NCBI RefSeq assembly: GCF_964204645.1 | Contig: NC_134027.1 | Coordinates: forward strand, 15,036,485-15,100,484 | Source: Tubulanus polymorphus | Lineage: Eukaryota > Animalia > Nemertea | DNA: 64,000 nucleotides | Direction: 5' to 3' | Shown: piece after piece, positions 434 through 64,000 of the stretch | Layout of the letters: each line of letters starts with the position of its first letter | Position numbering within the stretch: the first letter of the stretch is position 1 | The notes under the pieces: model-generated | Told to the model about the DNA's origin: nothing | The model's input: the letters and a program-made list of their open reading frames with translations, nothing else | The model's database searches: none | Position numbers and translations under genes: made by a program

Positions 434-509
434 CCGTTCAGTAATGTAATGCTGCTTATTGGTACCTTCAAACCTTAATGCATAATCATCAGGATCAGGT
501 AACATCCAT
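434..509 (-). CDS. ELMO: ELMO/CED-12 coding exon 3 (76 bp)
   Basis: Minus strand ttttcag|...|gtaagt. Translates (a)WMLPDPDDYALRFEGTNKQHYITER, matching the ELMO N-terminus (W-x-L...YAL...YITE). Phase fits exon 2. Confidence 0.85.
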
Positions 510-4249: not shown

Positions 4250-4290
4250 GTTTCACAGAGTTCCTTTAGAACTGCAGCAAGTGGTTTATT
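4250..4290 (-). CDS. ELMO: ELMO/CED-12 coding exon 2 (41 bp)
   Basis: ttactttcag|AATAAACCACTT...TGTGAAAC|gtgagt. Translates NKPLAAVLKELCE(T), resembling ELMO KKPLSAIIKEVCDG. Phase 0 to phase 2. Confidence 0.85.
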
Positions 4291-6250: not shown

Positions 6251-6399
6251 CAGTGCCCATGTGTAATTTGAGAAAAACCCTCTGAGTGCCCATCATTGTT
6301 ACGTAAAAAGTAGGAAAATCAGTAGTAACTTTGGAGCTCCATTCAGTAAAAACTGTAAGAGATATAGCTTTATGGTAATTGAAAGGTTTGTAGGGTATA

Positions 6400-15878: not shown

Positions 15879-15959
15879 CTGATCAAACTCTATGAATTGA
15901 GTTGGATATCCTGGCAATAATACAGCTACTTTACATATATTTTCTGGAATATGAGGCAT
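15879..15959 (-). CDS. ELMO: ELMO/CED-12 first recognisable coding exon
   Basis: Translates MPHIPENICKVAVLLPGYPTQFIEFDQ followed by donor gtaggc, resembling ELMO [26 protein letters not shown]. An acceptor (ttgtag) lies 36 nt upstream of the ATG. Splices in frame to the exons at 4290 and 509. Confidence 0.85.
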
Positions 15960-26339: not shown

Positions 26340-29300
26340 TTTATAGTAGGCCTAAATAGCCTAATAAAACCTACCTTCGGAGAAAGCAAGTCCCTTTCAG
26401 CTTTTAAAAATTAAGGCGTAGGCCTAGTGAAACTTGGGCGGGTAATTCCAGGGTGATTTGGTCTGCAGAGTTTCAAGAAGCAGTCAAAATTGAATTGAAT
26501 TGAATAGTCATTGGGACCGGTGACGATTTAGGTCTGTCTGCAGAGTTTCCAGAACCTGTCATGACAGGTGGGACCTCAGGTGACAGGTTGATTCGCTAAA
26601 ATGAAAATCGTTATGACTGAACCGATGATAGGCGATTAGAAGACATGATAGGCGCGGATTTAGAACATGATAGCCGATGAGAACACAAAGAACATATCGT
26701 AGTGCTTTCTGAATATATTATTCAAAAACAGGCGGTGCAACCAGGATAATCTAAGCTCATCTTGCTTTTGGCATCTTCATGTGTTCTTCAAACTTTTGAA
26801 ACTTTTCCCGTTGAATTACAGACTCGGCCCCTCTCCATCTCCTCTCCCCTATTGAATTCATCAGAATGCGTCACTTATTTTATATCATATCACATTATTT
26901 ACCATCAAATAAGGCCTCAGGCAGCCACATTAATCAATCTATTTGTCGTTGGAACTACTTTTTGTTCAGAAGAATATGCGCCTTCACCTATATTCCGCTG
27001 TGCTTCACAGACGTGCGCGCCACAAGAATCGCTGCGATGTAACCTGTGCGTGTACTGTATTAATGAAAAGCGTGCCTCATGTGGTGGCATTGTTAAAAGT
27101 TTTCCAGGAAACTGCTGTGATGGAGTGACTATCACCACAGAGAGTTGACCAGATCCGAAGGAGTAAAGTCGAAGAGCGTGTTGTATTTTATGAATCTAAA
27201 CAGCATCTGACTTTATTACTACAGTATAGGGTTACAGTATAGTACACATGGCGCGAAACAGCAACCAATCATATAAGAGAGACATCGACGAATCATATAA
27301 GAGAACCAACAGTCGTTCTCGACACTCCGGGGGCGGCGGTAAGCGCCAAATTTGAAAGTTTACTCCAAGATAACATGTATCGCATTAAATTGAAAGATAT
27401 TAATAATCACTATACTAAGTAATAGTTTCACGTATGAAATTGAATCGCCATAAGGGCTAGAAATAGAGACATTGCGTTGTGTTGAATAAATGAGTACATA
27501 AAGAATATTTCATAATAAATGACTATCTATAGAAAGCAAGTTAACATCGTATCTAATAACATTTAAATTCATTAATCCGCTTTATAGTAATAATAAGTCA
27601 TTCCCAACACCAAGAGTGATTAAACGATATTTCAAGTCCTTTCCGGTAAAGAAAAGTTTCGAAGCGAACGCGTTATTTGTTTAAGATCGGAAACGATTAA
27701 AGTTCGGAAAACGGTGTTGTCATATCGCGGAAAGACGGAATCGCGGAATTTTCCAAAAACGCGGAATTTCTTCATTTTAACTATAAATAGTAAACGGGTT
27801 TTCCCACGGGGATACCCACTGTCGGACAGGGCATCGGACCCAGGTTTTCAACCACGGGAATTAGTATTTGATAATTTATTATATCGCCAGTCAACAACTT
27901 AACGATACTGTTCCAAATAATGTAGAACCTAGGCAATACGTGCTTTGCGAATTCAGTGATACAGAGTATCGCTGCATTAACTGAAGGAATACAAATCGAT
28001 GGTACGTAAACGTAGGATTTTTGATGACACCAAGGGTCATTCTCCAGGACTCAGTTCCGAGTTAAGATTTGACTCTGGTCTCTGGATTTAAAACATTGGA
28101 AATGAATTGATTCTAAGTAACTCAGAGTTAACTCACAACTGTGGAACTGGATCGATGTCAGACGAAAATAAATAGACATTATGTACATTTCATTCTGGCT
28201 TAGGATTGTTCATGCGTGTTGTGTGTCTACATTGTTGTTATAAGCGAATGTGGTTTATCTTTTAGAATTAAATGATATGAAAGATTATAAAATGGTTTCG
28301 TTTTTTTTTAATGTTTTCTTTGTGACTGCTATAACATATATGTTCCTATGCTGATTATTTGGATCAAAAGAATCTCATTGGTACCGGTACTGGACGAATT
28401 TGACGAAGGAATTTGAACCGATTCTTGTTTGGTCGTAGGATTTCATGTTTGCAACCATCTAAAACTACGGTCCGACACCGCGAACGTGCTCAATATTTAT
28501 TTGATAATATTCGTTTCTGAAGTTCTCAAAAAGTCGATGAACTTCGATAACCGAAGTTTGCCCAGTAGAAATAGACATTAGGTGCCTGGTCTCTTTCACC
28601 CCACTTGATTCTGACTTCTTCTACAGGTAACCAGTCAACGGTATCGTAATATAATAAATCCATATAAAATTGCCTGCAAATAATGGGACTCGAACCTAAC
28701 TCGTTGCATCGATCGGTCCGGTGCCCTGTCCGACAGTGGGTATCCCCGTGGGAAAACCCGTTTTCTATTTAAAGTAAGAATGAAGAAATTCCGCGTTTTT
28801 GGAAAATTCCGCGATTCCGTGTAACGAGGTCCTATTCTGCCTGTTCCACAGTAGAAGTTTCCTCCAAATATCGACTCTGAGAGCCCAAAAACCAGTAAAA
28901 AGGCGGACAAAAGATATTAACACAATCACCTATTGTTCTGTATTTTCGAGAGAGAGGGCAGCACCCTCCAGTTACAACATAGAAAACGACTGATGGACAT
29001 ATTCCATCACACCACCCCCCCTTCAACTTGTTCAAACTCCTATTTGAACAGGAATATATAGTCAAAATATCTACACAAATTAAATTATAGTCCTTATTAT
29101 AGTATATTAAGCTCCAAACTTCTCGGCTCTGGATACAGTAGACATCTAACACGGCGTAGTCGTTGTTTCGCATTAGGGTTGCATCTCAGTGATGATAATA
29201 CATGCAGCTTTCGATCTCCACTAATGGTTTGTGGTTTGTTTTCGGGGCGCACCTAAGCGTAGTGTCTAACCAAAAATATCTATACCATCAAAAGGTAGAT

Positions 29301-37311: not shown

Positions 37312-37861
37312 AAACAATTTATCATTTCAACTGCCAAACAATTTATCATTTCAACTGTCAAACAATTCATCATTTCAACTGTCAAACAATTTATCATTTC
37401 AACTGTCAAACAATTTATCATTTCAACTGTCAAACAATTTATCATTTCAACTGCCAAACAATTTATCATTTCAACTGCCAAACAATTTATCATTTCAACT
37501 GTCAAACAATTTATCATTTCAACTGTCTTATCATTTCAACAGTCGAACAATTTATCATTTCAACTGTCAAACAATTTATCATTTCAACTGTCAAACAATT
37601 TATCATTTCAACTGTCAAACAATTTATCATATCAACTGCCAAACAATTTATCATTTCAACTATCAAACAATTTATCATTTCAACTGCCAAACAATTTATC
37701 ATTTCAACTGTCAAACAATTTATCATTTCAACTGTCAAACAATTTATCATTTCAACTGTCAAACAATTTATCATTTCAACTGTCAAACAATTTATCATTT
37801 CAACTGCCAAACAATTTATCATTTCAACTGTCAAACAATTTATCATTTCATGCTAAACAAT
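37312..37861. repeat. 24-bp minisatellite AAACAATTTATCATTTCAACTG(T/C)C, about 23 copies
   Basis: Head-to-tail units without spacers; one truncated unit near 37527. Confidence 0.95.
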
Positions 37862-38417
37862 TCATGATCTTTAGGATAGTTTCTGAAATCAAAATGATGT
37901 TTTAATGTTTTTAAATCATCAGTTATGTTATTAGTTTTTATCTTTAATACGTGTTATGATATTTTGATTTAAGATGGTGTGATTTATTGCTTCGAGTATA
38001 ATATTTTCCACAATTACATTGGATCGTTTAAAAACTGGAGTTTTCCATTTATACAATTTTGAATTTGCCACACTTTTATAGTGGCGCTACTGTCGCTGGT
38101 TAATTCATAGGCTTCAGGGCAGAAATTAAAATGGTGTCTTTGAGGTTGATTTAGAGCTTGTTCACCCCTCTGGAAAATCAAAATAATAAGACGAAAGTTG
38201 TAAGTTTGATTTATATTATAGCATTATTATAACGAAAATACTTTATACTATTTGTCATATTCAATCTTTGTGCAATTGAGTGACCAGTTTGTTATTAATT
38301 CCAGATTGAATGTCTGTCTCTGAAACGAGCTGAAATAAAATCTAAAACAGAACAGTCAATACAATAATTCGTCGTAGTTTCGAGTTCTTTCTGCAACACT
38401 ATTCAATAACTACGTAA

Positions 38418-41475: not shown

Positions 41476-42260
41476 TCAAATCCAAAACATATACTCGGTC
41501 CAACAGTTATATTCATTTATATAGTCAAAAAATCTACATCTTATAACTAATTCATAAATTACGGGAAAATTATTTAAATCAATTAAGTAACCATTATGAT
41601 TTCTTATTTCTAATTTAAAATTATTAAAATGTGGAATACAAGGTTTAAATTCGAATTCTGATAAATAATAATTAATTTGTCTTCCAAAGTGTCTAACATT
41701 TTTTAATGGTAAAATATTTAATATACTAGAATTACAAATGGTATCTTTAGTTGCTTCAAATGTTTTTGTAGGATCAATTAAATTACAATAAATATAGAAA
41801 TGTGTGTAAGGTACTAAGTATGATCTACCTTCTGCGTTTACTGTAACATCTGGGTTTATTCCTAACAGTTTAGCTAAAGGTTTTCTTACTGTAACTTTAA
41901 ATTGTTCATCATGAGCTAACCTAATCTTTATTTTATTAGAACTATCACTTTTTGAAAATGTTAAATCCGGAATCACTTCCTAATTTAGCTCGAGCTTTTT
42001 TTATTAATTTCTTGCGCTAATGTATCTAAATTATATAATCCTGGTTTTAAATATATAAAAAACCATTTATTCCTTTTTTTGTAAAAGATTGAAAAAATTA
42101 AATGTTCTAGACTTTTATTCGATATATTGTAAATATATATTTACTAATTTTAAATCTACACAATTTTTAAATTCTCTATCTAATTGTACTAGTAAATTAT
42201 GTGATTTTGAAATTGTAAGTCTTCTAGAATCAACAAATATTCTATATTCCTTTAGATGAA
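41476..42260 (-). pseudogene. Polinton/adintovirus-like minor capsid (penton) protein
   Basis: C-terminal pattern FYIYCNLIDP...ILNILPL...EFKP...LEIRNHNGYLIDLNNFPVIYELVIR resembles Polinton pentons. Very AT-rich, like the PolB region. Recognised by pattern only. Confidence 0.6.
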
Positions 42261-42262
42261 GC

Positions 42263-45200
42263 AGTGAGTATTAAATTACGTCGCGATACGGGTGCCTCTC
42301 AAACTTTAATGTTGGAGAGTCTTTTACCGTTATCTGGTAGTACTTTAATCGGTGAACATGTTCTCATTAGAGGAGTTGGTTCAGAAATAATCAAAGTTCC
42401 ACTCCACAGAGTTTATCTGGATTCTGATTTAGTTCGCGGTTCTGTAGTTGTGGGCGTTCAGTCGTCACTACCTATTTTGGGTGTATCTATGCTCCTCGGT
42501 AATGACTTGGCTGGTGGTAGAGTACACGTTAACCCTTTAGTCACTACAGATCCTCTACTTAATATAGATACTGAAAGTTTAGAGAAAACATATCCTGGAA
42601 TTTTCCCATCATCTGTAACTACTAGGGGTATGTCACGATGTGCTGATAAGATAATGGGATCTAAGCCCTGTTTAGAAAACAAAGAGTTTTCTAATGAAAT
42701 GGTAGATTTAAGTGATTCGTTTCTTGGTCGAATTTTTGACGAAACGCCTACCGGTTTCATTTCATCTAATAAAGATGTATCATCAAGGTCAAACCTTATT
42801 GATTTGCAGAATGTCGAACCAGAGTTCAAGACATTTTTAAATTCTGCTTCCGATTCAATTGAATCATTAACTGATACGCCTTCTGGATATTATTTTCAGT
42901 CTGGAGTGTTGATGCGTAAATGGCGACCTCCAGATGTTCCAGCAAGTAATGAATGGAAAGTTTATCATCAGATAGTTGTTCCAACACCATATCGGAATGA
43001 TATTCTAAGTTTAGCTCATGAAACTTCGCTTGCTGGTCATCTGGGAGTCACCAAGACTTACAACAATGTCTTAAATCACTTTTTCTGGCCTGGTTTAAAG
43101 CGTGATGTTCAAAAATTTTGTGCAACCTGTCGAACATGCCAGGAGTCTGGTAAGCCTAACCAGATAATACCCCCTGCACCTCTTATTCCGATTCCAGCGT
43201 TCGGGGAGCCGTTTGCAGAGGTTATTTGCGATTGTGTAGGTCCATTACCGAAAACTAAATCAGGGTTTCAGTATCTGTTGACAATAATGTGTAAAGCAAC
43301 ACGTTTCGCTGAAGCTATACCGTTAAGGAATATAACTGCACCACTTATCTGCAAAGCATTGGTTAAATTTTTTACGCTGTTTGGGTAACCGACATCGGTG
43401 CAGTCTGATCAAGGTTCGAACTTCGTATCCAATATATTCCAACAGGTTATGTATCAGCTAGGAATTAAACAAAATATTTCTAGCGCTTACCACCCTGCAT
43501 CTCAGGGAGCTCTTGAACGTTTCCATCAGACCCTCAAAGCAATGCTTCGAACATATAGTATACAACATGAGAAAGATTGGGATGAGGCAGTACCATTTCT
43601 ACTTTTTGCTATGAGAGAAGCAGTTCAAGAATCCCTGGGATTTAGCCCTTTTGAGTTGGTATTTGGTCACCAGGTTAGAGGTCCATTAAAACTAATTAAA
43701 GAAAGATGGCTTGATAAAACTGATGAAATTAATTTGTTAACGTATATTTCCAATTTCAAAGAACGGTTGTATTCTGCATGGGAATGTGCTCGTATGCACC
43801 TAAAGCAAGCACAGGGACGTATGAAAACCTGGTATGACAAAAAAGCTCGTAACAGAGAGTTCAAAAAAGATGATTAAGTTTTGGTGTTATTTCCACTGAA
43901 AGGTCATCCGTTTAAAGCTTAATTTCATGGTCCGTATGTAGTGCAAGAAAAGGTGAACGATGTGAATTATATTGTTTCAACGCCTGACCGTAGAAAAGCT
44001 ACTCAATTATGCCATATTAATATGTTGAAACTTTACATAGATCGTCCACAGTCTGTCGGTATGATTTCAATTGCTGAAAATAATACTAATGAAATATGTA
44101 TTTCAAACTATATTGAAAATCCATTGCATCTAGAATCTGATTTCGATAATTCTAAATTAGCTACTATTGCACCTGGTTTCAATAACAGCAAGGTAATAAG
44201 CAGAAAAAGTATGTCATTTAGGTTCAAAAGAAAAAGATCAATTATTGCAACTTATTAACGACAATAAACATCTTTTTACAGATCAACCTGGTCTAACATC
44301 TCATGATGTCGATGTTGGGGATGCTACTCCTAACAAACAGCATCATTATAGAGTGAACCCACAAAAAGGTGAAATTATGAAACAGGAGGTAATTTCTATG
44401 ATTAAAATGGCCGTAGCTGAGCCTAGTGAAAGTGAGTGGAGTCCTCCGTGCTTGCTAGTACCCAAACCTGGAGGTAAGTGGCGTTTTGTAACTGACTTTA
44501 GAAAAGTCAATGCTGTGACTAAGTCTGATAGTTACCCAATGCCACGAGTCGACGATCTTATTGATCGCATTGGCCGAGCCAAATATGTCAGTAAATTCGA
44601 CCTAACAAAAGGGTACTGGCAGGTACCTCTTTCTGAAAGAGCTAAAGAAATCAGCGCTTTTGTGACCCCCGACGGATTATTTCAATATCGCGTTATGCCT
44701 TTTGGCATGAAGAATTCTGCCGCCACCTTCCAGCGGTTAATGAACAAAGTAGTGCGTGGGCTAGTATGTGTTGTAGTATATTTGGATGATATCATTGTTT
44801 TTTCCGACACTTGGGAAGAACACCTACAACAAATGAAAAATCTGTTTCATAATCTCACCGAAGCTAATCTAACTGTTAATTTAGAAAAAAAGCGAATTTG
44901 GTAAGGTCACAGTTAAATATCTAGGCCATATAGTGGGACAAGGTCAAGTACGCCCCATAGATGCAAAAGTCAAAGCTATAATTGAGTATTCACCACCTTC
45001 TAACAAGCGTGACATCATGCGTTTTTTAGGAATGGCGGGATATTATAGAAAGTTTTGTAAAAATTTCGCAAAAGTCACTGTTCCTTTGACCGAGTTGCTG
45101 AAAAAGGATGCAAAATTTGAGTGGAGTGAAACTTGTGAGAAATCTTTTCAATCAGTAAAACATTTGTTGATGTCAACTCCTATTCTCGCAGCTCCAAATT

Positions 45201-46717
45201 TCGATAGACAATTTAAGCTTACTGATTGATCGCATTGGCCGAGCCAAATATGTCAGTAAATTCGACCTAACAAAAGGGTACTGGCAGGTACCTCTTTCTG
45301 AAAGAGCTAAAGAAATCAGCGCTTTTGTGACCCCCGACGGATTATTTCAATATCGCGTTATGCCTTTTGGCATGAAGAATTCTGCCGCCACCTTCCAGCG
45401 GTTAATGAACAAAGTAGTGCGTGGGCTAGTATGTGTTGTAGTATATTTGGATGATATCATTGTTTTTTCCGACACTTGGGAAGAACACCTACAACAAATG
45501 AAAAATCTGTTTCATAATCTCACCGAAGCTAATCTAACTGTTAATTTAGAAAAAAAGCGAATTTGGTAAGGTCACAGTTAAATATCTAGGCCATATAGTG
45601 GGACAAGGTCAAGTACGCCCCATAGATGCAAAAGTCAAAGCTATTATTGAGTATTCACCACCTTCTAACAAGCGTGACATCATGCGTTTTTTAGGAATGG
45701 CGGGATATTATAGAAAGTTTTGTAAAAATTTCGCAAAAGTCACTGTTCCTTTGACCGAGTTGCTGAAAAAGGATGCAAAATTTGAGTGGAGTGAAACTTG
45801 TGAGAAATCTTTTCAATCAGTAAAACATTTGTTGATGTCAACTCCTATTCTCGCAGCTCCAAATTTCGATAAACAATTTAAGCTTACTGTAGACGCCAGT
45901 GATTCGGGTGCTGGCGCAGTTTTAGCTCAAGATGATGATGACGGTTTGGGACATCCTTTTTGTTCTTTTCAAAGAAGTGTGTAGCTGCGCAGAAAAATTA
46001 CTCGACAATTGAGAAAGAATGTCTGTCTATAATCTTAGCTTTAGAACATTTTGATGTTCATACAAGTATGAAAATCTCTCCAGTAGTTAAATTTACAGAT
46101 CACAATCCATTAAATTTCTTGTATAAGATGCAGAACAAGAATAAGCGTCTCATGGCTTGGAGTGTGCTACTGCAGTCGTATGACTTAGACTTAAGACGCA
46201 TTAAAGGACGCTGTAATGTGGTTTCAGATGCCCTTTCGCGCTCATAATATTACGTAATAATTAATGTGTAATGTATTGTTGAAATATTCCGAATCGTTAT
46301 GTTCTGAAGATTAAATATGTGTTTGTTTGTATTTTTTGTCGAATTTTGTAGAATGTATGTAAGTGTATTTTTTTCTAGAAATACATCTCTGAATGTTTTA
46401 AGGGTGCGGGTGTTACCCAGTTATTGTATAGTTATTGTATGTATAGTGTTTATTTGGTATTCTGACTTCAGTCTGTTCAGTGTGAATCATTCAGTGTTTA
46501 TACTTGACTTACCCCTAAAAACTGTACCTATATGAATATCTGTTTACTGACCACTGTCAGTCCCAGCCACAGTACTTTAATAAATGCTCGACGTTGTAAT
46601 ATTATACGTCTGGTGTCGTCGTTAGTTTTATGGGTGTTGTTCGACCCTGGAGCTTGGATCCGAAAAGGAATTGGGTATTTCGGCCCTGGAGTTTAATCCG
46701 TAAGAGTACTTAGGACA
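42263..46717 (+). mobile_element. Gmr1-like Gypsy element (PR-INT-RT-RH order), 5'-truncated, 3' LTR ~46411-46717
   Basis: RDTGASQTL protease, then integrase (HET..AGHLG...CRTC; DCVGP; SDQGSNF; GALER) before RT (YLDD) and RNase H (VDASD, TDHNPL). PPT AAGGGTGCGGG precedes TGTTAC. Confidence 0.88.
44560..45889 (+). repeat. 665-bp tandem duplication within the Gmr1-like RT
   Basis: Units 44560-45224 and 45225-45889 are near-identical and share the same frameshift. Confidence 0.95.
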
Positions 46718-47000
46718 AGAAGATTATGTGATATTTTGTAATGAATGTGGATGGCAAAGAAATTTATGGGGTGATGAAAAAACTAGAGATATTCTTATAG
46801 AACCAAAATTAAAATATCTAGATGAAATTTTGAGGATATTTTCTATGGAAGATCATACACCAGAATATAAGTAATGGCTTGAAAAAATGAAAATGATAGA
46901 AAATAAAAATGGTGAAATAACTAAGAAAGATATATTAAAAACAATTATTCCATCAACATGTAACACAAAAGAAAAGAAAATTTATTTATATTTATTGAAT
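46718..47000 (+). pseudogene. Putative VLTF3-like protein, N-terminal half
   Basis: Translates YVIFCNECGW...KLKYLDEILRIF...ITKKDILKTI...KIYLYLLN with one internal stop. Continues after the Gypsy at 55590. Confidence 0.5.
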
Positions 47001-47568
47001 TGTAGCGGAAAACGGGGGCAAGGCGGTGCTGCCCTCTCTCTTCGAATATGGGTGTCGTTCTTCTGCTCGTCTCATAAATTCATCGATGTAATCGGCAACC
47101 ATCTAATTTGTCAGGATGTCTAAACAGGTAAAAATCTTATCTTCTTAGCCCGCTACGGAGTTCGCTCACGTCGAATGATTTCTGGTAGTGAAATCAAAAG
47201 GGGAAATAACTAATATCTCGCCGCAAGGGATGATCCTCATGAGAAACCGAGAGAGATAAATATATAAAAATAGCCACGATATGAAAATTCTAATCTAGTG
47301 TATACAGATCGTGGCTATTTTTATATATTTATCTCTCTCGGTTTCTCATGAGGATCATCCCTTGCAGAAAGATATTAGTTATTTCCCTTTTTGATTTCAC
47401 TACCAGAAATCATTCGACGTGAGCGAACTCCGTAGCGGGCTTAGAAGATAAGATTTTTACCTGTTTAGACATCCTGATTACATCGACAAATTTATGAGAC
47501 GAGCAGAAGAACGACCGCCATATTCGAAGAGAGAGGGCAGCACCGCCTTGCCCCCGTTTTCTGCTACA
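47001..47568. repeat. Palindrome formed by an inverted duplication of the LTR 3' end
   Basis: 47001-47313 is the reverse complement of 55277-55589. 47308-47568 is the forward LTR end. The spacer is 27 bp. Confidence 0.92.
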
Positions 47569-50500
47569 ATTGGTGTCAGAAGTGGGATGATTCTCTTTGA
47601 GATTCCAGATTGAGATATTTCTTTTTTATATAGCCTCGCAAGATAACAGATACATATTTTAGTAGATTCTGACAAGTTGCCTTTAGATATAGTCGATAGG
47701 TTTAGTATATATTGCTGCATGTAGTTAGATTATAAGCAAGAACATACAATTTAGACTTCGTATTTTATACAGATTCGAAGTCGTTCAAGTCAGCAAAAAT
47801 GAGTTATCCAGTGACTCGTGCATCGCGTGCTCGCATTATGCGTAGTAAAAGTTCAGAAGATATATCAAGTCCAGACGGTCTTGTGAATAACGAGACGTCG
47901 ATAACAGTAGTTCAAGGTGATGTAGGTCCTGTAAGCAGGTCCGCATCGTATCGGTCTAGTATGACCAGTAATCCGACAGGCCAAACGTTCTCTGGCGAGA
48001 GTCAAGATGGAACATGGTCTCGAAGTAGTGGTTCGGCGGATGTAGGTAGAACAAGTTCTTCCGGTTCCCGCAATATAGAACCAAATGTGATCTGTAAGAT
48101 AGAACCAGAAAATTATTCAGGTGACGGATCATGGCAAGATTATAGATTAGGATTTGAAACAGTATCTAGAATCAACCACTGGTCAAACGATGTGAAAGCC
48201 GATTTCCTACTCGCTTCACTACGAGGCGCGGCTAGACAATTAGTTTGTACCAAGTTGGTTAACACGGAAAGATTAGAGTATCAAGAAATCTGTAAGATTT
48301 TAGATGCAAGATTTGGTCCAGGGGATTTCGCAGAAGTCCATCTGGCCGAACTGCGCAATAGAAAACGCAAGAGACATGAGAGTTTAAAAGAATTGGGACA
48401 AGCAGTAATAATACTGTGTGCTCAAGCGTATCCTGAATTCTCTTTGATACAAAGAGACAAGCTAGCCAGAACCCATTTCATTGAAGCATTATCTGATTGT
48501 GAAATGAGAATGAGATTATGGCAATCAGATGTAAAGAGTTTTGATGAATTGATCTCGTATGCGTTGCGTTTAGAAAGTATATATATATATGATGGAATCA
48601 TCAAATGATAGGTTTCCACGAGAAACGTATGTAAGACAAGCGATAGTTTCAGACGAGCTTAAGAAAGAAATGGCGAGTTTAAGAGAAGATGTGCGACGTA
48701 TGTGCAATAGTCGTAGAGATAATCATAAATCTCAGTCGACACCATACAGAGCAAGTAATAACGTAGTTTGTTATAACTGCCAACAAAAGGGTCATATAGC
48801 AAGACAATGTACACAGCAGCCTTTAAACTCTCCCGCGCCGTTCAAAAGGGAGTAGGTTCGGCTAGAGTAAATGAAGCAAATCTCCCAAAGAATTTAGAGA
48901 TTCAAGATAAACAAAAGAGTAATGTTTCTAAAGTATACGTACTGTCTAAAAATGATAAATCACAATCAGCGATTTATTTGTCAGCAGTAGTACACGGAGT
49001 GTCTGTGAAGTATCTGGTAGATACCGGTGCTCATAACACAATCATCAGTAATCGTTTGTATACTGAAATTATAAAGAATCACAAGATGAAATTAGAACAA
49101 TCAAATATACGACTCTATGCGGCTGATCATAGTAGTATTAGAGTGAGAGGTACAGCGATCATTCCCTTAGGTCTATTTGGAAAAAATGTACCTTGGGAAG
49201 TGAAAGTGGCTGAAATTAAAGAAGACGCTATTCTAGGAATGGATTTTCTGACAGCGTATGATTGTCATATTCATTTAAAACAGCGGACAGTGACTTGTCA
49301 AGGTCATCAAATTCAGGAGGAGTCAATAGCTCCTATTCATGAGAACACAATATTAATTAGATCAACAGAAAGAATTAAGGTCCCGCCTTTATCTGAGATA
49401 ACTGTGTCGGGCTATATCGAGGAGAAAGATAAACAGTACTTAGGCGAATGGGCGATGGTAGAATCGAACCACAATTGGAAGTTAGGGCCTGAAATGTGTG
49501 TAGCACGTAGTGTAGTGGATACAGAGAAATCACAAATATTGGTTAGAATCGTAAATTTAGGCGATCAGCCGCGAGTATTGTATAAAAATACCTCGATGGC
49601 TAAAATATCAAGAGTGAGAGCTATATGGTCATAGGAAGGGACAAGTGTCAAATCAGATCAAGTTAATCAAGTAGAGAGTAAAGAATCTCTAGAATATCTA
49701 GAAGACTTAATCAAGCGTAGTTGTGAGGGTTTGAGCCCAGAACAATCTAGAAAAGTGCGAAATTCAATTGTGAAATACGCAGATGTATTTGCGAAATCGG
49801 ATATAGATTTAGGGGAAGCGAAAGGAGTTTACCATACTATAGATACTGGTTCAACGCCACCTATCAAACAGCGATTTCGGCGATTACCATTAGCAAAACA
49901 GGTAGAATTAGATAAACTTTTGAAAGATATGATGGATTCCTAAGTGATCGAGAATAGCCAATCACCATGGAGTAGTCCAATAGTATTGGTGACCAAGAAA
50001 GATGGTAACCTTAGATTTTGCTTAGACTATCGGGCTTTAAACGAGTGTACAGTGTCAGACTCCTATCCATTACCTCGAATTGATGATACGATAAGGTCGT
50101 CATCTGGAGCCAAGTATTTCTGTGGAGCCGATCTTCAGGCAGGTTACTGGCAAGTTCCAGTATCGCCTAAAGACAAAGAAAAGACAGCATTTGTAGTCCC
50201 GCAAGGTTTATATCAATTTAGAAAAATGCCTATGGGTCTAAAGAACAGTGGTCCTACTTTTGAGAGACTCATGGAAAGAGTTCTGGAAGGCTTATTGAAC
50301 GACATAGTCCTAGTTTATCTAGATGATGTCATTATATTTGGCAAAGATTTTGAATCGACTTTGACGAATTTAGAAAAAGTTTTTGAGCGCCTACGAGCAG
50401 CTAGGTTGAAACTCAAGCCGAAGAAATGTCATTTCTTCAAAAGTAGTATTGAATTTTTAGGGCACATAGTGTAAGACCAAGGCATTGCTTGTACTGAAAC

Positions 50501-53843: not shown

Positions 53844-54989
53844 CGGTGTTTTCATATCGCGGAAAGACGGAATCGCGGAATTTTCCAAAAACGCGGAATT
53901 TCTTCATTTTTACTTTAAATAGTAAACGGGTTTCCCCACGGGGATACCCACTGTCGGACAGGGCACGGGACCGATCGATGCAACGAGTTAGGTTCGAATC
54001 CCATTATTTGCAGGCAATTTTAAATGGAATTATTATATTACGATACCGTTTACTGGCTGCCACCTGTAGAAGAAGTCAGAATCAAGTGGGGTGAAAGAGA
54101 CCAGGCACCTAATGTCTATTTCTACTAGGCAAACTTCGGTTATCGAAGTTCATCGACTTTTTAAGAACTTCAGAAACGAATATTATCAGATGAATATTGA
54201 GCACGTTCGCGGTGTCGGACCGTAGTTGTAGATGGTTGCAAACATGAAATCCTACGACCAAACAAGTACCGGTTCAAATTCCTTTGAAATTATTATTATT
54301 TTACGGCCGTCCAGTACCGGTAACAATAAGATTCTTTTGATCAAAATAATCAGCATAGGAACATATATGTTATAGCAGTCACAAAGTAAACATTAAAAAA
54401 AAGAAACCATTTTATAATCTTTCATTTCATTTAATTCTAAAAGATAAACCACATTCGCTTATAACAACAATGTAGACACACAACACGCATGGACAATCCT
54501 AAGCCAGAATGAAATATACATAATGTCTATTTATTTTCGTCTGACATCAATCCAGTTCCACAGTTGTGAGTTAACTCTGAGTTACTTAGTATCAATTCAT
54601 TTCCAATGTTTTAAATCCAGAGTCAAATCTTAACTCGGAACTGAGTCCTGGAGAATGACCCATGGTGTCATCACAAATCCTACGTTTACGTACCATCGAT
54701 TTGTATTCCTTCAGTTAATGCAGCGATAGGCCTACTCTGTATCACTGAATTCGCAAAGCACGTATTGCCTAGGTTCTCCATTATTTGGAACAGTATCGTT
54801 AAGTTGTTGACTGGCGATATAATAAATTATCAAATACTAATTCCCGGTGTTGAAAACCTGGGTCCGGTGCCCTGTCCGACAGTGGGTATCCCCGTGGGAA
54901 AACCCGTTTACTATTTATAGTAAAAATGAAGAAATTCCGCGTTTTTGGAAAATTCCGCGATTCCATCTTACCGCGATATGACAACACCG
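53844..54989. mobile_element. Mutator-like MITE, copy 2 (uninterrupted, 1146 bp), inside the Gypsy 3' LTR
   Basis: Long TIRs and an exact 9-bp TSD GGTAAAATG. Confidence 0.92.
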
Positions 54990-55589
54990 GGTAAAATGCC
55001 ACGGTGGAGACGAATAGCAGAGGACTATTTAGTAGGGACTTAGAGCCTACAGCCTATGAGGAGGGAGAATCTATGGTGGAATTTACGACTGCCATTAGTA
55101 TGAAGTGAGGGTTACGAGATTATTCTAAAGACCGGTCGAATGTAGGGTAGATCAAGGTATAATTCGGGGTGGCCAACCTGATTATATGCTGTGGGCCTTA
55201 TGGGCATGTAAGAGACATGTTGCAGAGAAAAATTTTATTCCGTATTCCGGAAAATAGGTTATTCGTGCTCGGTGTGCACGATCTGTATACACTAGATAAG
55301 AATTTTCATATCGTGGCTATTTTTATATATTTATCTCTCTCGGTTTCTCATGAGGATCATCCCTTGTGGCGAGATATTAGTTATTTCCCTTTTTGATTTC
55401 ACTACCAGAAATCATTCGACGTGAGCGAACTCCGTAGCGGGCTTAGAAGATAAGATTGTTACCTGTTTAGACATCCTGACAAGTTAGATGGTTGCCGATT
55501 ACATCGACGAATTTATGAGACGAGCAGAAGAACGACCGCCATATTCGAAGAGAGAGGGCAGCACCGCCTTGCCCCCGTTTTCCGCTACA

Positions 55590-55870
55590 ATTTAACGATT
55601 ATTATAAAAAACCTAAATTAACAAAAGAAGATATGGAAAATATAGAAGAAACATTCACAAACATATTAAAATGTTATTCGGATAATAAAATAACAGATTC
55701 AATTAATTATCAATTCTGTTTAAATAAGATTGTAAATTTTTTAAACATCGATATTATAATTCCATTTGATGAATTAACGAACAAAGAAACAAAGAGAGCT
55801 AGATGAAATGTGGAATAATGTAGAACTTTATTTAAATGAGAAAAATGAAATGAAAATGAAATTAAATTAA
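55590..55870 (+). pseudogene. Putative VLTF3-like protein, C-terminal half
   Basis: Translates KPKLTKEDMENIEETF...SINYQFCLNKIVNFL...PF...LDEMWNNV, resembling the VLTF3 C-terminal pattern. Confidence 0.5.
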
Positions 55871-55913
55871 AGACAATTAAATGAAAATGAAGAAGCCATG
55901 ATGATTTTCTTTT

Positions 55914-58900
55914 TTAATGGCCATAAGGAACGGATTTAAACTAGTTTTTTCAACTTCATTAATGTACTTCTCGTGATCTTCTGATCTTAAACGATTCATT
56001 TTATGTTTCATTACAATTGAGTTATATAAACACTTTATATAATCTTGAAATTCTATGTCATTCTATGTTTATCAACCACATGTTTTGTTATTCCTTTTAA
56101 CTTTTTAGCTTCATGATCTTTTTTTCTATAACTATACATTTTACTTCTTATCCCAACAAATTCAATCATTTCATCGCCCCCTAATTCATCTTTAAATTTA
56201 CCAGGAATTTTTTTATTATCATTGCTAAATAGTTCATGAAGTTTTGGATAATTGATAAGTCAAAATCATGTTTTAATGTTTTTAAGTCTTTTGTTACGTC
56301 ATTTGTCTTGATTTTGAGTATGTAACTGTCAGTATTCTTTAGGATTAATGGAAATCCACAATTAAATGTACCATCTTCAGTTGTTAAATCATAAACATGT
56401 TCTGTAGGATTGGATATTTCAAATAAAACTCTTACTTCTTCTGTTAGTTCATTTTCTACATGCGTTAATTGAAATACATTTAGTTTATCCTTTCTAATAT
56501 TAACTAACATATTAAATCCTAATGAATTGCATAATATATTTAATCCTGATATAGCAACTTTTCCTTTTTGTGTCAAAGATATAGTTTTCTGTTTTGTGTA
56601 GTTTTTTGAACCATCTGCAGCATAGAATCCAATGAAGAACCATTTTCTTGAATTATCTTTTGCATTTAATACATAATCTGGTACTATCTTTAGTTAAAGC
56701 ATTACTTTTAACTATTGCATGAATATAGAATTCATCATTATATTTAATTGCAAAATCTTTAGGATTATTTACATGTATTCTATAAACTGCTGATGATTTC
56801 ATAACATCTATGATTTTAAATGTTTTATTTCGATAAACTTCTTTACAGTATTTCTTTATTCTTTCTAATAATTTCAAATCTTGATTGCATAAGCACCAAC
56901 AATATTGAGTTTGATTAACATGCTTATACACACCTGCTGAACCATCACCCATAAAAAATCCTTTGATAAAATATTCTTTTTCTTCTAATGTTTCAGGTTC
57001 TCTATTTTAAATATTATAAATTATTTCATCAAATGACATATGATTCATTCTTTGGAAAAATATTTTATGTAATAATTCATCTCCAATTTTTATATCAGTT
57101 GGTTTTATTTCATCACCATTTTGTTTAATTAAAATATGATCTTCAGTAACACCAACGAATCCTGATTTAGTTCTAACTCTATAGATTTTCTTATTTGTTT
57201 TATGCCTAATAATATTCTTTAATTTTTTCCATCCATTTCTTGTCCAAACATCCATTAATCCATTTATTTGTATTAATTCTTTTCACCATATGAAATATAA
57301 AGTTCATTTTGTTTTGGAATTATTTCTGAAATTCTTCTAATTAATATTTGGTTATTGTATTTTAATAATATGGGGGTATCAGCTGTTACAGAATCAAAAT
57401 ATAATATTTCAATATGTTTTTCCCCATAAAGTGGTTGTAAAACATTATAATAAAAATCATACATTAATAATTTTGATATTTCTAAAACAGTTGAACCAAT
57501 GAATATAGGTTTATTAAATTTCATTGACGTTCTTTTTAATTTTTCTGCTGTTAAATAAACTTCAAATCTTTTATTTCCTAAATAGGACTTGATTGTAAAT
57601 GTCTCAATCGTTCAGAATTATTTACTAATTCAATATCATTTCTATTTCTAATATTTTCACGTTTTTCAGTAAAAACTATTATTCATTAATTTGAAGGAAT
57701 CTTTTTCAAAATCTGTTTTTGATATGGTCCTCTGTTGAGTATTAAAATCTATATATTTTTCTAACCACTTCGATTGATTAAATTCAATATATCTATGTAC
57801 TTTCTATAATTTCATTCCTTGTTTTGGATAAAATTTTAACATTCTATAATGAACAATATAATTGTATTTATTATTTTGAGTAAGTATTAATTTTTGTGTA
57901 AAAACATGATCTTTCGGTTTTATTTTCTTCTTGTATTCACTTAAATAACTATCATCTGCGGCTAAATGTTCTGGGCAATATGGTAAGTTTCTTGTTTTAA
58001 ACCTAATGTTATCAGGATATTCTAAATCAACTACAAAAAATAACCAATTGGTGCTTCATCTTCTAAACTCATAATTGCGCTTTCCCAATTAGTTTTATCA
58101 TCATTTTCAACTTCTGTTGAAACATAAAATTTTTACATGGTTGGGGTTGCATCATTGCCCAACCATATACATTATTAGCGTCAATATATAATAATTTATA
58201 TTCATCGTTTGCTTTAAAATGTCTCCCATAACATCTCCCATAAAATCTCCCATAACACCACTTATTCCACCTCTAATTGATTTTTCAAATAATAAAACCA
58301 TGTCTGGTTCTTTTAATAAATCTAATTCTACATTTGTATATTTAAACCACATTGCCAGGTTAAGCCAGGACTTGAATAACAATAACAGGGATCAACATTA
58401 AAATTAACTTCTCTGAATTTTTCAAATATATCAGCCATTATCATAACATCTGATTTTAAATATAAATCTACTTATTCACCATGATTTTTTTATCTTAAAA
58501 TGATTCCAAATATTTAATGTTCTATTTAACACTTCATCTTTCACATACTCCTCTTTTAATTGATCATAAAATTGTTCTTTTAATAATTCTGTCATCATGT
58601 GTTTTATAAAATGAATAAGGAATTGCACCTTTAAATCTCAATAATTTAAAATCTTGTTCATTTGGATAATAATGTGAGTTATTATGAAATCATTATCAAC
58701 TAAACTTTTTGCTAAATTATCTAATGAACTTGCTAAAAATCTATAAGAATCTAAAATTCTAATGCAACCAAATTGAAATGAAATACAATTTTCAGATGTC
58801 TTAGCTAATAGTTTAAAATCATATTTTCTTACATTTGCGCCATTCATAGCATTATATTCTTCTATTTCCTGATTAATTGTGCCCAATTTTCCTGATAATT

Positions 58901-60194
58901 GTTTTGTAAATAGATGGGTATCATAGCCTGATAAATTATGAAATAATATTGGTACGAAATTGACTTTCTTAGCTCGTAAATTGCAATCTTCATGAGCAGC
59001 TCCACGATATTTTGTATTTAAATGATCATGATCTCAACTTTTTTTATCAAATGAATAAACACGTTTTTCACAGTAACAACAATGAGTTGCATAATTGAAA
59101 TCAATTTCATCTTCTTTTGTCATAACTTTTCTTTTATTTTTGTTTAATAATTTTGCAAAATCATTTTCTATTTCAATTATTGGATTACAAATTTCATTTA
59201 CTACATATTCACCTCTAAAAGAAATATATTGACTTTCATATAATTCAGGATAATTTGATTTTATATAAATTCCATAAGCAGCAGCTCTTTGATGAACTTT
59301 TTTAATTGTATTTACAATTGGTGGGTCTTGAATTACGTCTTCATTTAATTCATTTCCTTCGTCCATTGATTTTAGAAATTGCTTTTTGTTATATATTGCT
59401 TTTCTATCTTGATCATTTAATTCTTTATTCAACGATTCAAAATCCCCATAAATTACAAATGGTACTATATTTTTAAATTTATGATTAATAAATTTCAACT
59501 TACAATCTTTTTTGTTGGCATTATTAATTTGCAAAAATCTTTATTATCACATAATTCTTTATGTTTTAGTAATGCATTTTCAGTTCTAAATTAAGATAAA
59601 CATTTTCTATATAAATATATTTTATGACTGTTAAGATCACTTTCTGTTCTAAAGAATAATTCTATTTGTTTTAACCACATATAATGTTCATTTTCATCTT
59701 CTTTATAGTATAATAAATCTATAACATTTTCATCATCATAATATTCTGTTAAATATAAAGCTTCTAATGTATAATCTTTAATATTTTCACCTTTTGTCTC
59801 TGGTAATTGCATTAATTCGAATACTTTTATTTTTAAATTATTAACTTTTTCTACTTTAGGAATCATTTTTATAGTTACTGGATATTGATCAATTTTATAT
59901 AATGTTTCATATTTCCGGTAATTTGTTATTTTACAAACATTTTCCTGAGTTGGGTGTAAACAACTAATAATTGACCATAGAAAACATTTATTGTCTTCAT
60001 TTTGAACATTTATTACTGCTTTTGTTGTAAATGGTAATTTAATATAAGATGATGCTTTAATATCCTTTTCTGTTGTAAAGTTTGAATCATTTTTAAATAT
60101 TCTTTTACTTTTTGATGCTTTATTCCTTTTTGTATTATAAACATTTAAATCTAAAAATACAATTTCATTCAATGTTAAACCAGAACCCTCAAAA
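55914..60194 (-). pseudogene. polB: Polinton/adintovirus-type protein-primed family B DNA polymerase, decayed
   Basis: SSYIKLP...NKCFLWSI...EHY (vOTU-like), IYGDFES (ExoI), CCYC...DHDH...GAAH..CN (EndoVII-like insert), FHNLSGYD (ExoII), IRGGIS, YIDANNVYGWAM (motif A), FKLMNNSFY (motif B), YFD/TDS (motif C), ending PYGH*. Confidence 0.93.
56334..57392 (-). mobile_element. Intein with LAGLIDADG homing endonuclease in PolB motif C
   Basis: YFD|SVTADTPILL (block A), GVTEDH (block B TxxH), IKGFFMGDGS and FIGFYAADGS (two LAGLIDADG motifs), VYDLTT..GTF (block F), LKN|TDS (block G with +1 Thr). 1059 bp with at least one stop and two frameshifts. Confidence 0.92.
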
Positions 60195-60198
60195 TGAA

Positions 60199-63100
60199 AG
60201 GCTGAATCCAAGAACATGTCTATCGCACTTTTGAGCCCAAACGTCTACTTTTACTTAGTAGCCACTGAGAACAATAAGCAATTAACGATATCGGCTACTT
60301 ATCCAGTAGTATACATTTCAAAACAGTCACTCTGAAATAGTATTCGTTTCAATTCGGTTGGTTTTTCATAGTGGCTGTTTCGAAGAGTCTACTATTGAAA
60401 AGTAGTGACCACTTGAAAACATCTGGTTTTGATAGTGCACACTAGCAGTAGAGGTGTCTGTAAAACCACCCGTCTGTAAACAGTGACTTTGTGATAGTAA
60501 CTCATACCATAACGGCTACTCTCAAAACATATCGTTTCTAAAAGTAAACTATTGAAAAGTGACCATTTTGAGATCGCTTGCCAGATTCCCTGTTATAAAT
60601 ACACTGTAGCAACATATGCTTCAGATTTGCAGTGATACGTGACAATATAAACATACTGAGAAACTCTACCCACCTATAGTTTGGGGTATAGTTCTATTTA
60701 GAGTGACTCTTAAGATCTGAAGATATTGTACATACTCTTTGAGGATGTGAAATGTAATGATCGATTCCCAACTCTAACCAATAAAAGTCGAGATTGGAGT
60801 TAAATTCATTTACAAATTGTCAAAAGTCATGTAGTTTTAAGACAAATCGAAATTTCCTTCTTTTTCATGGCGATATAATTTAATGAGGAATTCAATTTGA
60901 ACAAATGCAGCTATTTTCAAGCATAGGGCTGCATTTATTTTTGATTTAAATTCTTTGATTAAAAGCGCAATCATAAATTCAGGCTAACCTCTTATTATTG
61001 AAATGGTGGTTTATTTTCAACGGGGGGCCTGGATGTCTTTGCATCTTAAATTACGATCTGTTCGAATTTCCCTGAATTCTAATTTCGCTGCATCATTGAT
61101 TTTTTTAAACAAAATATGCTATGTATATCCATGTGGATTTTAAATATTCTAAAGAAATCATCTAAATCAAGCCTATATTTGATCAAATTTGATATCAATA
61201 AGAAACTTTGTATGGTATTCAAGATTTAATTTGGTGAAACCGCAACGTTTCGACGGGTGACTAAAACAGCCATCATCAGGTGGAATGTAGACATTCCTAG
61301 TGAGAAGGCCTTTTAGTCAGATGGCTGTCAGTCAACATCCGAACCGTTGTGGTTTAACTTTAATAAATTTCATGATACAAAATTCTATTGTGGAATTTCC
61401 TCATTTATCTACAGTTAACGGATTAGAGTATTTTATTTGACTTCTTCGGGTCCTGTAGTCAATTAGGTCGAAAATTATTCACTTTTCGGCTCGGAAGCGA
61501 TATACAACCGTGTTGGTCGCTATGATAGGGATTCCCTGTATATCTGCACCTTAGATCGGTACCTTTGTTGGTTCTAGCCTCGGTACCTTTGTTGCGTTCG
61601 CTTCCAAATTCAAGTATTGGTATCGTTATTCTTACTCTGAATGCACTTCTGTTGTCGAACATGGTGCCACATATTAGTAGTTATTATTTTACGATAATTT
61701 GTAAAAATGAGTTTAGTTGGAAAAAACTGATAATTATCACAAATGATCATTGGTTCATCGATTAAGCGAAGTTCAAACACCATTTTGGCGTATTATTTTA
61801 TTGGCACCTTGAAATAAAGTTTCATAGAGATATTGCGGTGCTAAGTTTATTACTATTATGAGGTAATTACTTTTGGTTCGAGGTCTTTTGGTGGCCAATG
61901 CAGTTTGTTCATTCGTTCATCAATCACTGTCTAGTTAGCCAGTGTAATTGACCTGCTGACCGATAGCTGCTGCTGGGTTTTTGAAAACCTATATAAACAA
62001 TTTACTCAACAAAGTAGGAAAGTGTGTGAAACTGAAATTACAGCCTATCGCATTTCTTTCACTTCTTAAGCCAAACGAAGTTTTCTGTATCAAATGAAAT
62101 TGCTGATTTCAAAATTACGTGAATATCTCAACACTGCCCTTTTACACGCTAATCTTGTGATCTTTTATAATAAGTTGGTAATTTCATTTCAACCAAACTG
62201 TATAACTATGAAATAATATTTGATCAGGCAATCACTTCTGGCAAGCGATAAAACGATTCATGAACAAGCCAAGAACAGCGTGACGAAGTGAACATAACAT
62301 TGATTACTTAAAACCCTTTGTATCGAAATAAACAATAAATTCAAGGTTAATTCTTAGTATTTTAGATACATTTTTTTCGGAATATTTTGTATAGTCTTCA
62401 TCCAGATAATGAGATAATAAGACGTTATTCATTTCATGAACATATGATTTTATTTGTATATTCCTTTCTCATATATCCTTAAAACAAATTAAGCCTAAAT
62501 GACAAATTTATTCTTTTATCTTTCTTTTCTACAAAATCAAAGATTTATGAACGCACCAGAATGTTTTATAATCGTAAATGTAAAACAAAAATCTTAAAAT
62601 TCTTAATTAGGACTGGCACTATATTAGTATTAATGGATTTAATCCTTGATGATGTTATATAAATCAATAGTTTTCCTATTGGATATTGCTATTTTGTTGA
62701 GCGTAATATAAATTAGGGGAATCTTGGCAACTCCAAAACTTGGATTTTCTATTCACAGAACTGTATTCAAATCATACAGAGTTCTGTATACAAAGCATAT
62801 AGGGTTTAACGTAACCTTTGAACCTGTCACGTATCACTGCAAATTTTTAACAGATGCTGCTATTTTGAACAGGAAATTACCAGGCCATCTCAAAATGGCC
62901 ACTTTTCAATGGTTCAATGATAGAAACGATATGTTTTGAGAGTAGATGTTATGGTAGGAGTTACTATCACAAAGTCACTGTTTACAGGCGGGTGGTTTTA
63001 CACATCACCTCTACTGCTACTGTGCACTATCAAAACCAGATGTTTTGAAATGGTCACTTTTCAATAGTAGACTCTTCGAAACAGCCACGATAGAAAACCA

Positions 63101-63261
63101 ACCGAATTGAAAGGAATACTATTTCAGAGTGACTGTTTTGAAATGTATACTACTGGAAAAGTAACCGATATCGTTAATTGCTTATTGTTCTCAAGTGGCT
63201 ACTAAGTAAATGTAGACGTTTGGGCTCAAAAGTGCGATAGACATGTTCTTGGATTCAGCCT
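60199..63261. mobile_element. Non-autonomous long-TIR DNA transposon (Kolobok-like termini) inserted in PolB
   Basis: TIRs of at least ~450 bp starting AGGCTGAATCCAAGAACATGTC, flanked by TGAA and TTCA. Removing the element and one 4-mer restores the PolB frame (KETYxxFEGSG). Confidence 0.8.
61240..61283 (-). ncRNA. Second Penelope-type minimal hammerhead, with an inverted truncated copy at ~61320-61413
   Basis: CCAC-CTGATGA-TGGC...GTC-GAAAC-GTT-GCGG, same family as 1727-1768. Confidence 0.6.
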
Positions 63262-63265
63262 TTCA

Positions 63266-63970
63266 AATATGTTTCTTTAATATGTCTTTTAAATTCATTA
63301 AATATTTTTCTCTTTTATTTGTGTTTTTCAAATTATTTCTTCAGAGTGTGTTTGAATATTATAATCCATTTTTACTTCTGATTTGATAAAACTTACTTTT
63401 CCAGAAATTCTAAATTTTGGATATTCAACATCTGTTACAAAATCTAGTATTTTTTTCCATGATTTCAATAAATTTACTATAATCTTCTATTGTTGCTCCT
63501 TTAAAAAATCTAAATATAATAACTGCAGGCCCAATTTTACTACGTAATATTTCTGAAATTTCAATTGTATCTTTTATTTCTAGTGAATCGATATAATTTC
63601 TAACATTTTCTATATAAGGTTTATTTGAAATAGATTTAGTTTTTGAAACTGGTTTTTTTACTTGTTTAGGTTTATCATCAAAATAATCTGTTCCTAAAAC
63701 ATTATTACTTAAATTTTGTTTGTGTTTTTGCGATTCGAGATGTCTTTTATAATTCCTTTTTGCTATAAATCCATTACATACTTCACCTTTTATTTCATCC
63801 ACATTCATATTTTCTAATTGTTCTTTTCTTTCATTGGAATTTTCTGGAGTTTCAAAATCTATAACATTTTTTTAATGATTTGCAGTTTTTTCATGCCGAG
63901 ATTTATTAGATTTTTCAATGTATTTTTTACAATATGTACAATAATATTGATTTTCATTAACATCACTTTT
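63266..63970 (-). pseudogene. N-terminal part of the Polinton PolB ORF (zinc-finger/terminal-protein region)
   Basis: AT-rich, with C2H2-like motifs (YCTYCKKY...RH; EVCNGFIAKRNYKRHLESQKH). Continuous with PolB once the TIR element is removed. Confidence 0.65.
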
Positions 63971-64000
63971 TTCTGTCTGGTACTCACTGTCTCCCATTTA

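Follow-up and report, generated by a model that had tools for sequence, protein, structure and literature searches.

A decayed pol-c intein in a Polinton-type, protein-primed DNA polymerase on a Tubulanus polymorphus chromosome, and its likely giant-virus ancestry

Inteins are described, in the available part of a preprint of September 2026 (10.64898/2026.09.14.751524), as occurring in every kingdom save the metazoan nuclear genome, and a 2018 survey (PMC5784728), in its accessible portion, gives fungi and protists as holders of nuclear inteins and, among viruses, reports polymerase inteins for large DNA virus families alone. The stretch of 64,000 nucleotides of the nemertean Tubulanus polymorphus analysed here (the window) raises the question of what a long coding insert in the catalytic motif of a polymerase gene is, and by which route it came to lie among animal transposons. 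The answer that we favour, and regard as quite probable, is a decayed pol-c intein in a Beta-type Polinton polymerase, belonging to a clade with a probable single origin in a giant-virus-type PolB, which is predicted to self-splice and to home between Polinton copies.

Three-frame translation of the minus strand identifies the host gene as a protein-primed PolB (pPolB), with motif A as YIDANNVYG, motif B as KLMNNSFY and motif C split in two (YFD|SVTADTP...GFPLILKN|TDSY). The first-pass annotation had proposed an insert of 353 codons exactly between YFD and TDS, inactivated by a stop and frameshifts, and both parts hold: 57392..56334 on the minus strand comprises 1059 bp with all splicing and LAGLIDADG motifs (Table 1), and in addition to the stop there are frameshifts near 57280 and near 56690. 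With one stop and two frameshifts this copy is untranslatable as a single piece; the net frame over the insert is maintained, and the copy presumably died after chromosomal insertion. In the alignment block A is Ser1 and the +1 residue of the C-extein is Thr, and the penultimate residue of the intein is Lys, not His. The G+C content is 24.7% in the insert vs 24.0% in the extein.

Concerning the identity of the insert, Pfam gives weak matches on its fragments, namely Intein_splicing (E=0.018) and LAGLIDADG_3 (E=0.0004 and 0.002), all under the curated cut-offs. The middle fragment matches the PolB intein PI-PkoII at E=1e-5 and the intein of an unbroken pPolB, P0004, with 62% identity at E=1e-71, on which ground a chance pattern was rejected; a Hedgehog-type Hint was also discarded, since the insert has an endonuclease and a C-extein. 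TIGR01445 finds no match on the window's intein fragments; among the intact relatives P0071 and P0005 score above its cut-off, and P0004 and P0079 slightly under it. An AlphaFold model of natural P0005 (alignment of 22 rows) reaches confidence over residues ~142-482 alone, the part that corresponds to the intein. Its best PDB matches (Foldseek) are TliVMA (E=2e-16), PI-PkoII, PI-PfuI and PI-SceI, together with I-DmoI, and its best viral matches (Foldseek, BFVD) are the PolBs of phycodnavirus, pandoravirus and megavirus.

The earlier Hint and LAGLIDADG assignment is therefore retained. In-frame insertion at a conserved site, the terminal and block residues and a Hint fold, which is based on the model of the intact relative and not on the window copy, together indicate a class-1 intein, as judged from sequence and model. 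Two LAGLIDADG (DOD) helices with their acidic residues are recognized by Pfam and alignment, in line with the I-DmoI fold matches, and the insertion point between D and T of PolB motif C defines the pol-c allele. As the first reading had stated, this is the same motif-C position as that of the Mimivirus and archaeal PolB inteins.

Pfam, alignments and the extein tree agree in placing the extein with pPolB as opposed to giant-virus PolB, in keeping with the initial interpretation. DNA_pol_B_2 matches upstream of the insert (E=2e-5), PF03175 matches Beta-type pPolB weakly, and the Mimivirus PolB matches the window only over the intein and its immediate flanks. An endogenised giant virus was rejected, the extein being pPolB and not RNA-primed PolB (PF00136). 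A protein-primed PolB, as expected of a Polinton/Maverick (adintovirus), is present; the Polinton status of the element rests on this polymerase, because self-comparison of the window reveals no terminal inverted repeats or target-site duplication, at least one element end lying outside, and neither an integrase nor a major capsid gene of the element was found in the window, which stops at the 5' end of pPolB. Of the integrase, packaging ATPase, protease and capsid genes expected of such an element, the only trace is the minor-capsid-like ORF, besides the VLTF3-like fragment (Table 1).

The polymerase gene of the window copy is further split by an insertion of 3.07 kb, likely a non-autonomous DNA transposon. 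In run X5 (raw DNA reads from a second study under the same species label, 1.9 Gb of reads) 123 reads join 60191 to 63265, so that other copies exist without this insertion. The ends of the 3.07-kb element (60195-63265) resemble pPolB coding sequence at the insertion point, and the element is multi-copy in the reads. A palindromic repeat of ~570 bp is located at 46998-47571, and a related copy at 55277-55592 removes the 5' end of the VLTF3-like gene. The window also holds a second pPolB C-terminal fragment (37312-37953), with 77% DNA identity to 56209-56315, which begins directly after the motif-C position and then enters a 24-bp tandem array.

Table 1. Features of the window, with coordinates counted from its first nucleotide.
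Feature	Position	Strand	Evidence
pol-c intein: Hint splicing domain and two-motif LAGLIDADG endonuclease, 353 codons, pseudogenised	56334..57392	-	translation, Pfam, homologue matches
Intein block B TxxH, VTEDH	57136..57147	-	alignment; coordinates counted from P0003
LAGLIDADG motif 1 (block C), YFIKGFFMGDGS	56938..56973	-	Pfam, alignment
LAGLIDADG motif 2 (block E), WFFIGFYAADGS	56607..56642	-	Pfam, alignment
Intein blocks F (VYD) and G, ending Lys-Asn before extein Thr	56334..56396	-	translation, alignment
In-frame stop of the window copy, absent from reads of the other copies	57007..57009	-	position 57007 disagrees with the window in 229/229 X5 reads
pPolB N-extein: endonuclease-VII-like insert, exonuclease, motifs A and B; many stops and frameshifts	57393..60194	-	translation, Pfam, alignment
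pPolB C-extein, broken	55880..56333	-	alignment
Probable 5' part of pPolB gene	63266..63997	-	continuity inferred from X5 read joint
3.07-kb insertion with ~450-bp inverted repeats (90%), splitting the pPolB gene	60195..63265	.	self-comparison
VLTF3-like gene fragment, convergent with and abutting pPolB, 5' end truncated by repeat	55593..55806	+	Pox_VLTF3 E=6e-5
Minor-capsid-like ORF, 14 kb off, which may or may not be part of the same element	41479..41979	-	atlas look-alikes 0.97-0.98, under the recognition threshold; a lead only
Host ELMO-like first coding exon	15879..15959	-	exon prediction; sole PDB match human ELMO2 residues 4-26, E=1.2 (weak)
Host ELMO-like second coding exon	about 4250..4290	-	position, splice sites, eye
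Host ELMO-like third coding exon	434..508	-	exon prediction; sole PDB match human ELMO2 residues 41-63, E=0.16 (weak)

The chromosomal surroundings are those of an animal. Exon prediction brought up three ELMO-like exons on the minus strand, bounded by GT-AG splice sites and lying 40-56 kb from the intein, the first and third of which match consecutive portions of the ELMO2 N-terminus at weak E-values; ELMO was detected neither by motif scans nor by Pfam on 53 ORFs of the window. The window consists of transposon debris with BEL/Pao (DUF1759, DUF5641), Gypsy and Pogo-type domains, and to our knowledge BEL/Pao is restricted to animals. Of the proposed endogenisation near ELMO, the animal chromosome and the ELMO-like exons at this distance stand; no listed read piece spans ELMO to intein. 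The same gap is what a symbiont or contaminant stretch, mis-assembled beside animal DNA, would have in its favour. We consider such an origin scarcely credible: a repeat, itself multi-copy in reads, sits inside the pPolB gene, the gene is decayed as in an old insertion, the reads of the second study carry the family at high depth under the same species label, and BEL/Pao-, Gypsy- and Pogo-type debris lies all around.

Among this debris, a Gypsy-type element at 42228-46247 has its integrase upstream of the reverse transcriptase, an order that we take to be Gmr1-like, and within it 668 bp are duplicated in tandem at 99.6% (44557-45889). Another element, 1.1 kb long with inverted ends of 129 bp, is present in two copies (27712-28820 and 53844-54989) that are 94% identical. 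The ORF at 18861-19214 gave no match.

Accepting the stretch as part of the animal chromosome, the reads also give information on its copy number. The depth of X5 is ~95-250x over the intein vs ~300-400x over neighbouring extein bins, and its reads differ from the window copy at 57007 (229/229) and at 57279 (157/205). The intein is therefore a multi-copy family in Tubulanus polymorphus, and the stop at 57007-57009 and the frameshift near 57280 are largely private to the window copy. The lower depth over intein than over extein suggests intein-less copies in the species; none of the 15 X5 joints shown, of 244, skips exactly the intein. Part of the window stretch occurs in four of the 10 runs listed, all of one species label; no RNA run is among those listed as containing it, which carries no information on expression. 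In run X1 contig depth ranges from 13,000 to 58,000 over the Polinton parts (55569-60339, 63276-64000) and from 300 to 9,600 over neighbouring repeats, a contrast unlike that of X5; depth in X1 is a poor measure.

The locus is no isolated relic: it is one member of a clade with many copies in the species and intact, polymorphic copies elsewhere. A search with the middle fragment yielded 35 proteins among 490 candidates, corresponding to 32 RNA-primed PolBs, one topoisomerase II and two pPolBs, the best match being P0004, an unbroken pPolB of 1693 aa with the same intein. The intein of P0004 in turn retrieved 1134 proteins, with five pPolBs among the best 120 (P0004, P0071, P0079, P0084 and P0085), all of them unbroken, full-length and intein-plus; P0005/P0042, P0269 and P0358 are partial intein-plus pPolBs. 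Identity of the unbroken pPolB inteins to the window intein is 40-77%, with P0358 at 77%. Ser1, TxxH, the acidic residues of both LAGLIDADG motifs, the Asp of block F and the terminal Asn are retained in all seven complete pPolB inteins, and the penultimate residue is His in three, Lys in three and Ser in one, Mimivirus having Lys as well. Splicing activity of the intact relatives is thus predicted from their residues.

Other searches returned few additional members. The best 150 of 2058 matches of a representative search added 138 new rows (124 RNA-primed PolB, four topoisomerase II, nine unclassified and one pPolB), and an alignment-based scan of metagenomes gave one pPolB intein among 80 kept of 235 loci, the rest being giant-virus or archaeal inteins. 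No pPolB intein was present among the 80 kept of 537 viral and 30 genome (prokaryote) loci, IMG/VR scans with P0003, P0004 and P0071 as queries returned no locus, and plasmids gave no match. All intact intein members come from metagenome assemblies. The P0071 cluster has 136 members on contigs of up to 1.0 Mb and the P0005 cluster 121 members on contigs of up to 55 kb, lengths that suggest eukaryote genomes. Atlas look-alikes of P0071 are arthropod and mollusc clusters with scores of 0.83-0.84, to be taken as leads only. The P0071 lineage (P0233-P0339) is a large pPolB radiation found on long contigs; in place of DTDS, its motif C mostly reads DCDS, DTDG or DTDA.

Empty sites were found as well. 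The intein-less pPolBs P0228-P0230 read EKHIEIMYFD-TDSYILKIKTND, which is the predicted empty site with nearly identical flanks, and the extein of P0228 is the closest to that of the window (73% identity). P0079 departs from the other members: it is a PF03175-type polymerase with a VSR-like insert, read by eye, and 23-30% extein identity to the Beta set. The labels Alpha (P0079) and Beta (the rest) are assignments made here from the description in PMC8502044.

To place the family, intein and extein trees were built separately. The rows P0300 (a false pattern match) and P0036 (a long branch) were dropped, and no row was retained that exceeded 62% (inteins) or 68% (exteins) identity to one already included. 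An earlier outgroup of topoisomerase and motif-B inteins was non-monophyletic in the 61-row tree; the 48-row intein tree was rooted on nine archaeal pol-c inteins, 22 further rows having been removed for the sake of the outgroup. The eight pPolB inteins form one clade in each case, with SH-aLRT 99 in the first tree and 100/98 in both the 61-row and the 48-row trees. In the rooted tree this clade lies inside starred clades of 18, 23 and 27 rows, the last of which includes the Mimivirus intein, P0184; the root is not beyond doubt because the archaeal outgroup branches are long. Several rows near the pPolB clade match IMG/VR giant-virus MAG loci at 86-100%, and the two loci checked have giant-virus-type neighbours. 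On these sequences the pPolB-intein clade likely came from giant viruses.

The nearest single row is of another kind. P0138, a Pol-delta-like PolB that carries a pol-c intein and may be viral or cellular, has a C4 zinc finger at its C-terminus (Pfam zf-C4pol, E=1e-4) and is sister to the pPolB clade in three trees. Hence the donor might have been a Pol-delta-like polymerase in place of a typical giant-virus PolB, either from a virus akin to medusavirus or mirusvirus or the Pol delta of a protist itself. We deem such a donor very unlikely: the support for P0138 is 90/84 in the 48-row tree, the node is open in the 61-row tree, and the enclosing starred clades consist mostly of giant-virus-type rows.

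With a giant-virus-type donor as the preferred origin, the timing follows from comparing intein and extein. In the extein tree (41 rows) the seven intein-plus rows are scattered, needing six changes, and are no more clustered than shuffles. Among the Beta rows the two trees agree, and identities correlate with rho 0.65 over 21 non-independent pairs; the window and P0004, for example, share 63% in the intein and 60% in the extein, i.e. divergence is similar. The intein tree thus largely mirrors the Beta-pPolB tree, so the jump between polymerase classes would have happened once, long ago. This points to one old entry followed by persistence within lineages. The entry need not have taken place in an animal, and nothing in the sequences points to this animal lineage. 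The first-pass proposal of a transfer from a giant-virus-type PolB into a Polinton is accordingly kept as to the donor, the intein nesting among giant-virus PolB inteins, and altered as to the event, which appears single, ancient and not placed in an animal. The intein of the Alpha-type P0079 is sister to those of the window and P0004 (98/92), and this placement with Beta inteins implies a second jump, between pPolB groups.

The same agreement between trees would also fit an intein that splices but has lost homing, with a single entry in the Beta pPolB ancestor, vertical inheritance and many precise losses, the plus and minus alleles arising through loss and recombination between Polinton copies; the matching topologies and the similar divergence rates are what such a history would produce. 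Several observations make it unlikely. The full two-motif endonuclease is kept by all seven complete members at 42-77% pairwise identity, with no mini-intein seen. Only four of the 120 best extein relatives of P0004 listed have the intein, which would require very many precise losses. An Alpha-type polymerase carries the intein, and differences between plus and minus alleles cluster at the site.

This last point comes from two multi-copy families that contain plus and minus alleles at 94-99% identity, so that the intact intein-plus and intein-minus copies called for at the outset were indeed found, in relatives (P0071 cluster, P0042/P0045). P0042 (plus) and P0045 (minus) share 99% identity, and their flanks do not differ. 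In the P0071 cluster, 15 listed of 136 members include seven full-length intein-plus and five full-length intein-minus alleles; around the site (-7 to +43), 13-19 of 65 residues distinguish plus from minus, compared with 9-18 of ~1125 remaining positions in four alleles (~1%) and 51 of 1056 in the fifth (5%). The clustering has a Fisher p of ~1e-9 to 1e-10 for two alleles, the alleles not being independent, and is compatible with co-conversion in the course of homing or with the persistence of empty alleles that are resistant.

A related signal appears in motif C itself. In the wider P0071 lineage it is altered in 55 of 66 readable intein-less rows vs 2 of 50 in other clades, a count that sets aside four gapped rows and the intein-plus rows; the altered forms are DCDS (27), DTDG (15), DTDA (10) and others (3). 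Since the altered rows are close kin, perhaps from few genomes, escape of the target site is put forward as a hypothesis. A bolder picture, which we offer tentatively and find somewhat harder to believe than to doubt, is that animal nuclei host an active homing intein family in Polinton polymerases, with one crossing from giant viruses and a second one between Alpha and Beta types, and that intein-less polymerases are drawn into an arms race, altering the normally invariant DTDS to escape cutting.

Qualitatively, the mechanism that we propose for the homing intein is as follows. The insert splits the two motif-C aspartates, hence the precursor would be an inactive polymerase until splicing restores D-T-D-S, and only precise loss could get rid of the insert. 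By established class-1 chemistry, splicing would start with an acyl shift at Ser1 helped by TxxH, followed by transfer to Thr+1, Asn cyclisation and ligation of the exteins. For homing, the LAGLIDADG domain would cleave motif-C DNA in sister elements that lack the intein, whether these replicate together or sit among the many copies of a single nucleus, and repair templated by an intein-plus copy would convert the site together with its flanks. One ancient entry would have been followed by invasion, loss and re-invasion within Beta lineages, and by at least one further jump, to a pPolB of Alpha type. The initial transfer from RNA-primed to protein-primed PolB was probably a rare short-homology event in a co-infected animal or protist cell, as the two polymerase genes share little beyond motif C. 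For that reason, out of the suggested co-infection and homing between virus classes, the co-infected cell is retained as a proposal, whereas ordinary homing is doubtful and rare recombination is invoked in its place.

Comparison with known systems shows what is new here. The Mimivirus PolB intein, at the pol-c site YGD|TDS, has 351 residues according to the available part of Ogata 2005 (PMC549080). The window intein resembles it and other Nucleocytoviricota pol-c inteins in site, in Ser...Lys-Asn|Thr ends, in length (353 vs 351) and in its Hint and LAGLIDADG domains, with 35-48% identity to Mimivirus P0184 by segment; it differs in its host, a protein-primed PolB of a virus-like transposon with many copies in an animal genome, and in forming a clade of its own. 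Archaeal pol-c inteins share the motif-C site and a related fold, but are distant (22-49% on best segments) and were used as outgroup; 22 archaeal-bin or MAG loci have a motif-C intein, one of them giant-virus-like. The pol-c allele itself is already known from archaea and Mimivirus, and the novelty is the host protein, a Polinton pPolB in an animal genome.

Within Polintons, HNH and VSR nuclease inserts occur in pPolB2, as given in the accessible portion of Jeong et al. (10.1101/2023.08.22.554363), in whose text 'intein', 'homing' and 'LAGLIDADG' have 0 occurrences. The present insert is like these in being an endonuclease domain within a Polinton polymerase, and unlike them, described there as nuclease domains only, in having a complete Hint domain in the catalytic motif and plus/minus alleles. 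The available part of Krupovic et al. (PMC11071308) suggests that nuclease inserts in pPolB 'result from intein invasions', for which this family provides a concrete case. The host resembles the Beta adintovirus/Polinton pPolB, as characterized in the portion at hand of Starrett et al. (PMC8502044), in its weak PF03175 match, and differs in that the window yielded no capsid or integrase gene and no terminal repeats; the text of that paper contains 0 occurrences of 'intein'. Invertebrate iridovirus inteins are already in print, to go by a title in the reference list of PMC5784728. In the literature searched, as far as available, with subscription journals, Repbase, InBase and supplements outside its scope, no report of an intein in pPolB or Polinton was found.

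The family is an exception to the metazoan-nuclear absence of inteins, qualified by its residence in a virus-like element as opposed to a host gene, and pPolB inteins are direct sequence evidence for gene flow from giant viruses to Polintons. With plus and minus alleles that are nearly identical, one can directly test whether homing proceeds in a eukaryotic nucleus without allelic pairing linked to meiosis, and likewise target-site escape in a catalytic motif.

A final point of notice concerns other proteins retrieved with the family. Each of the type II topoisomerases P0032, P0414, P0466, P0472 and P0477 carries one intein or two, akin to the pol-c family, and P0087 and others, with two to four matched stretches, are giant-virus-type PolBs that carry several related inteins at motifs B and C.
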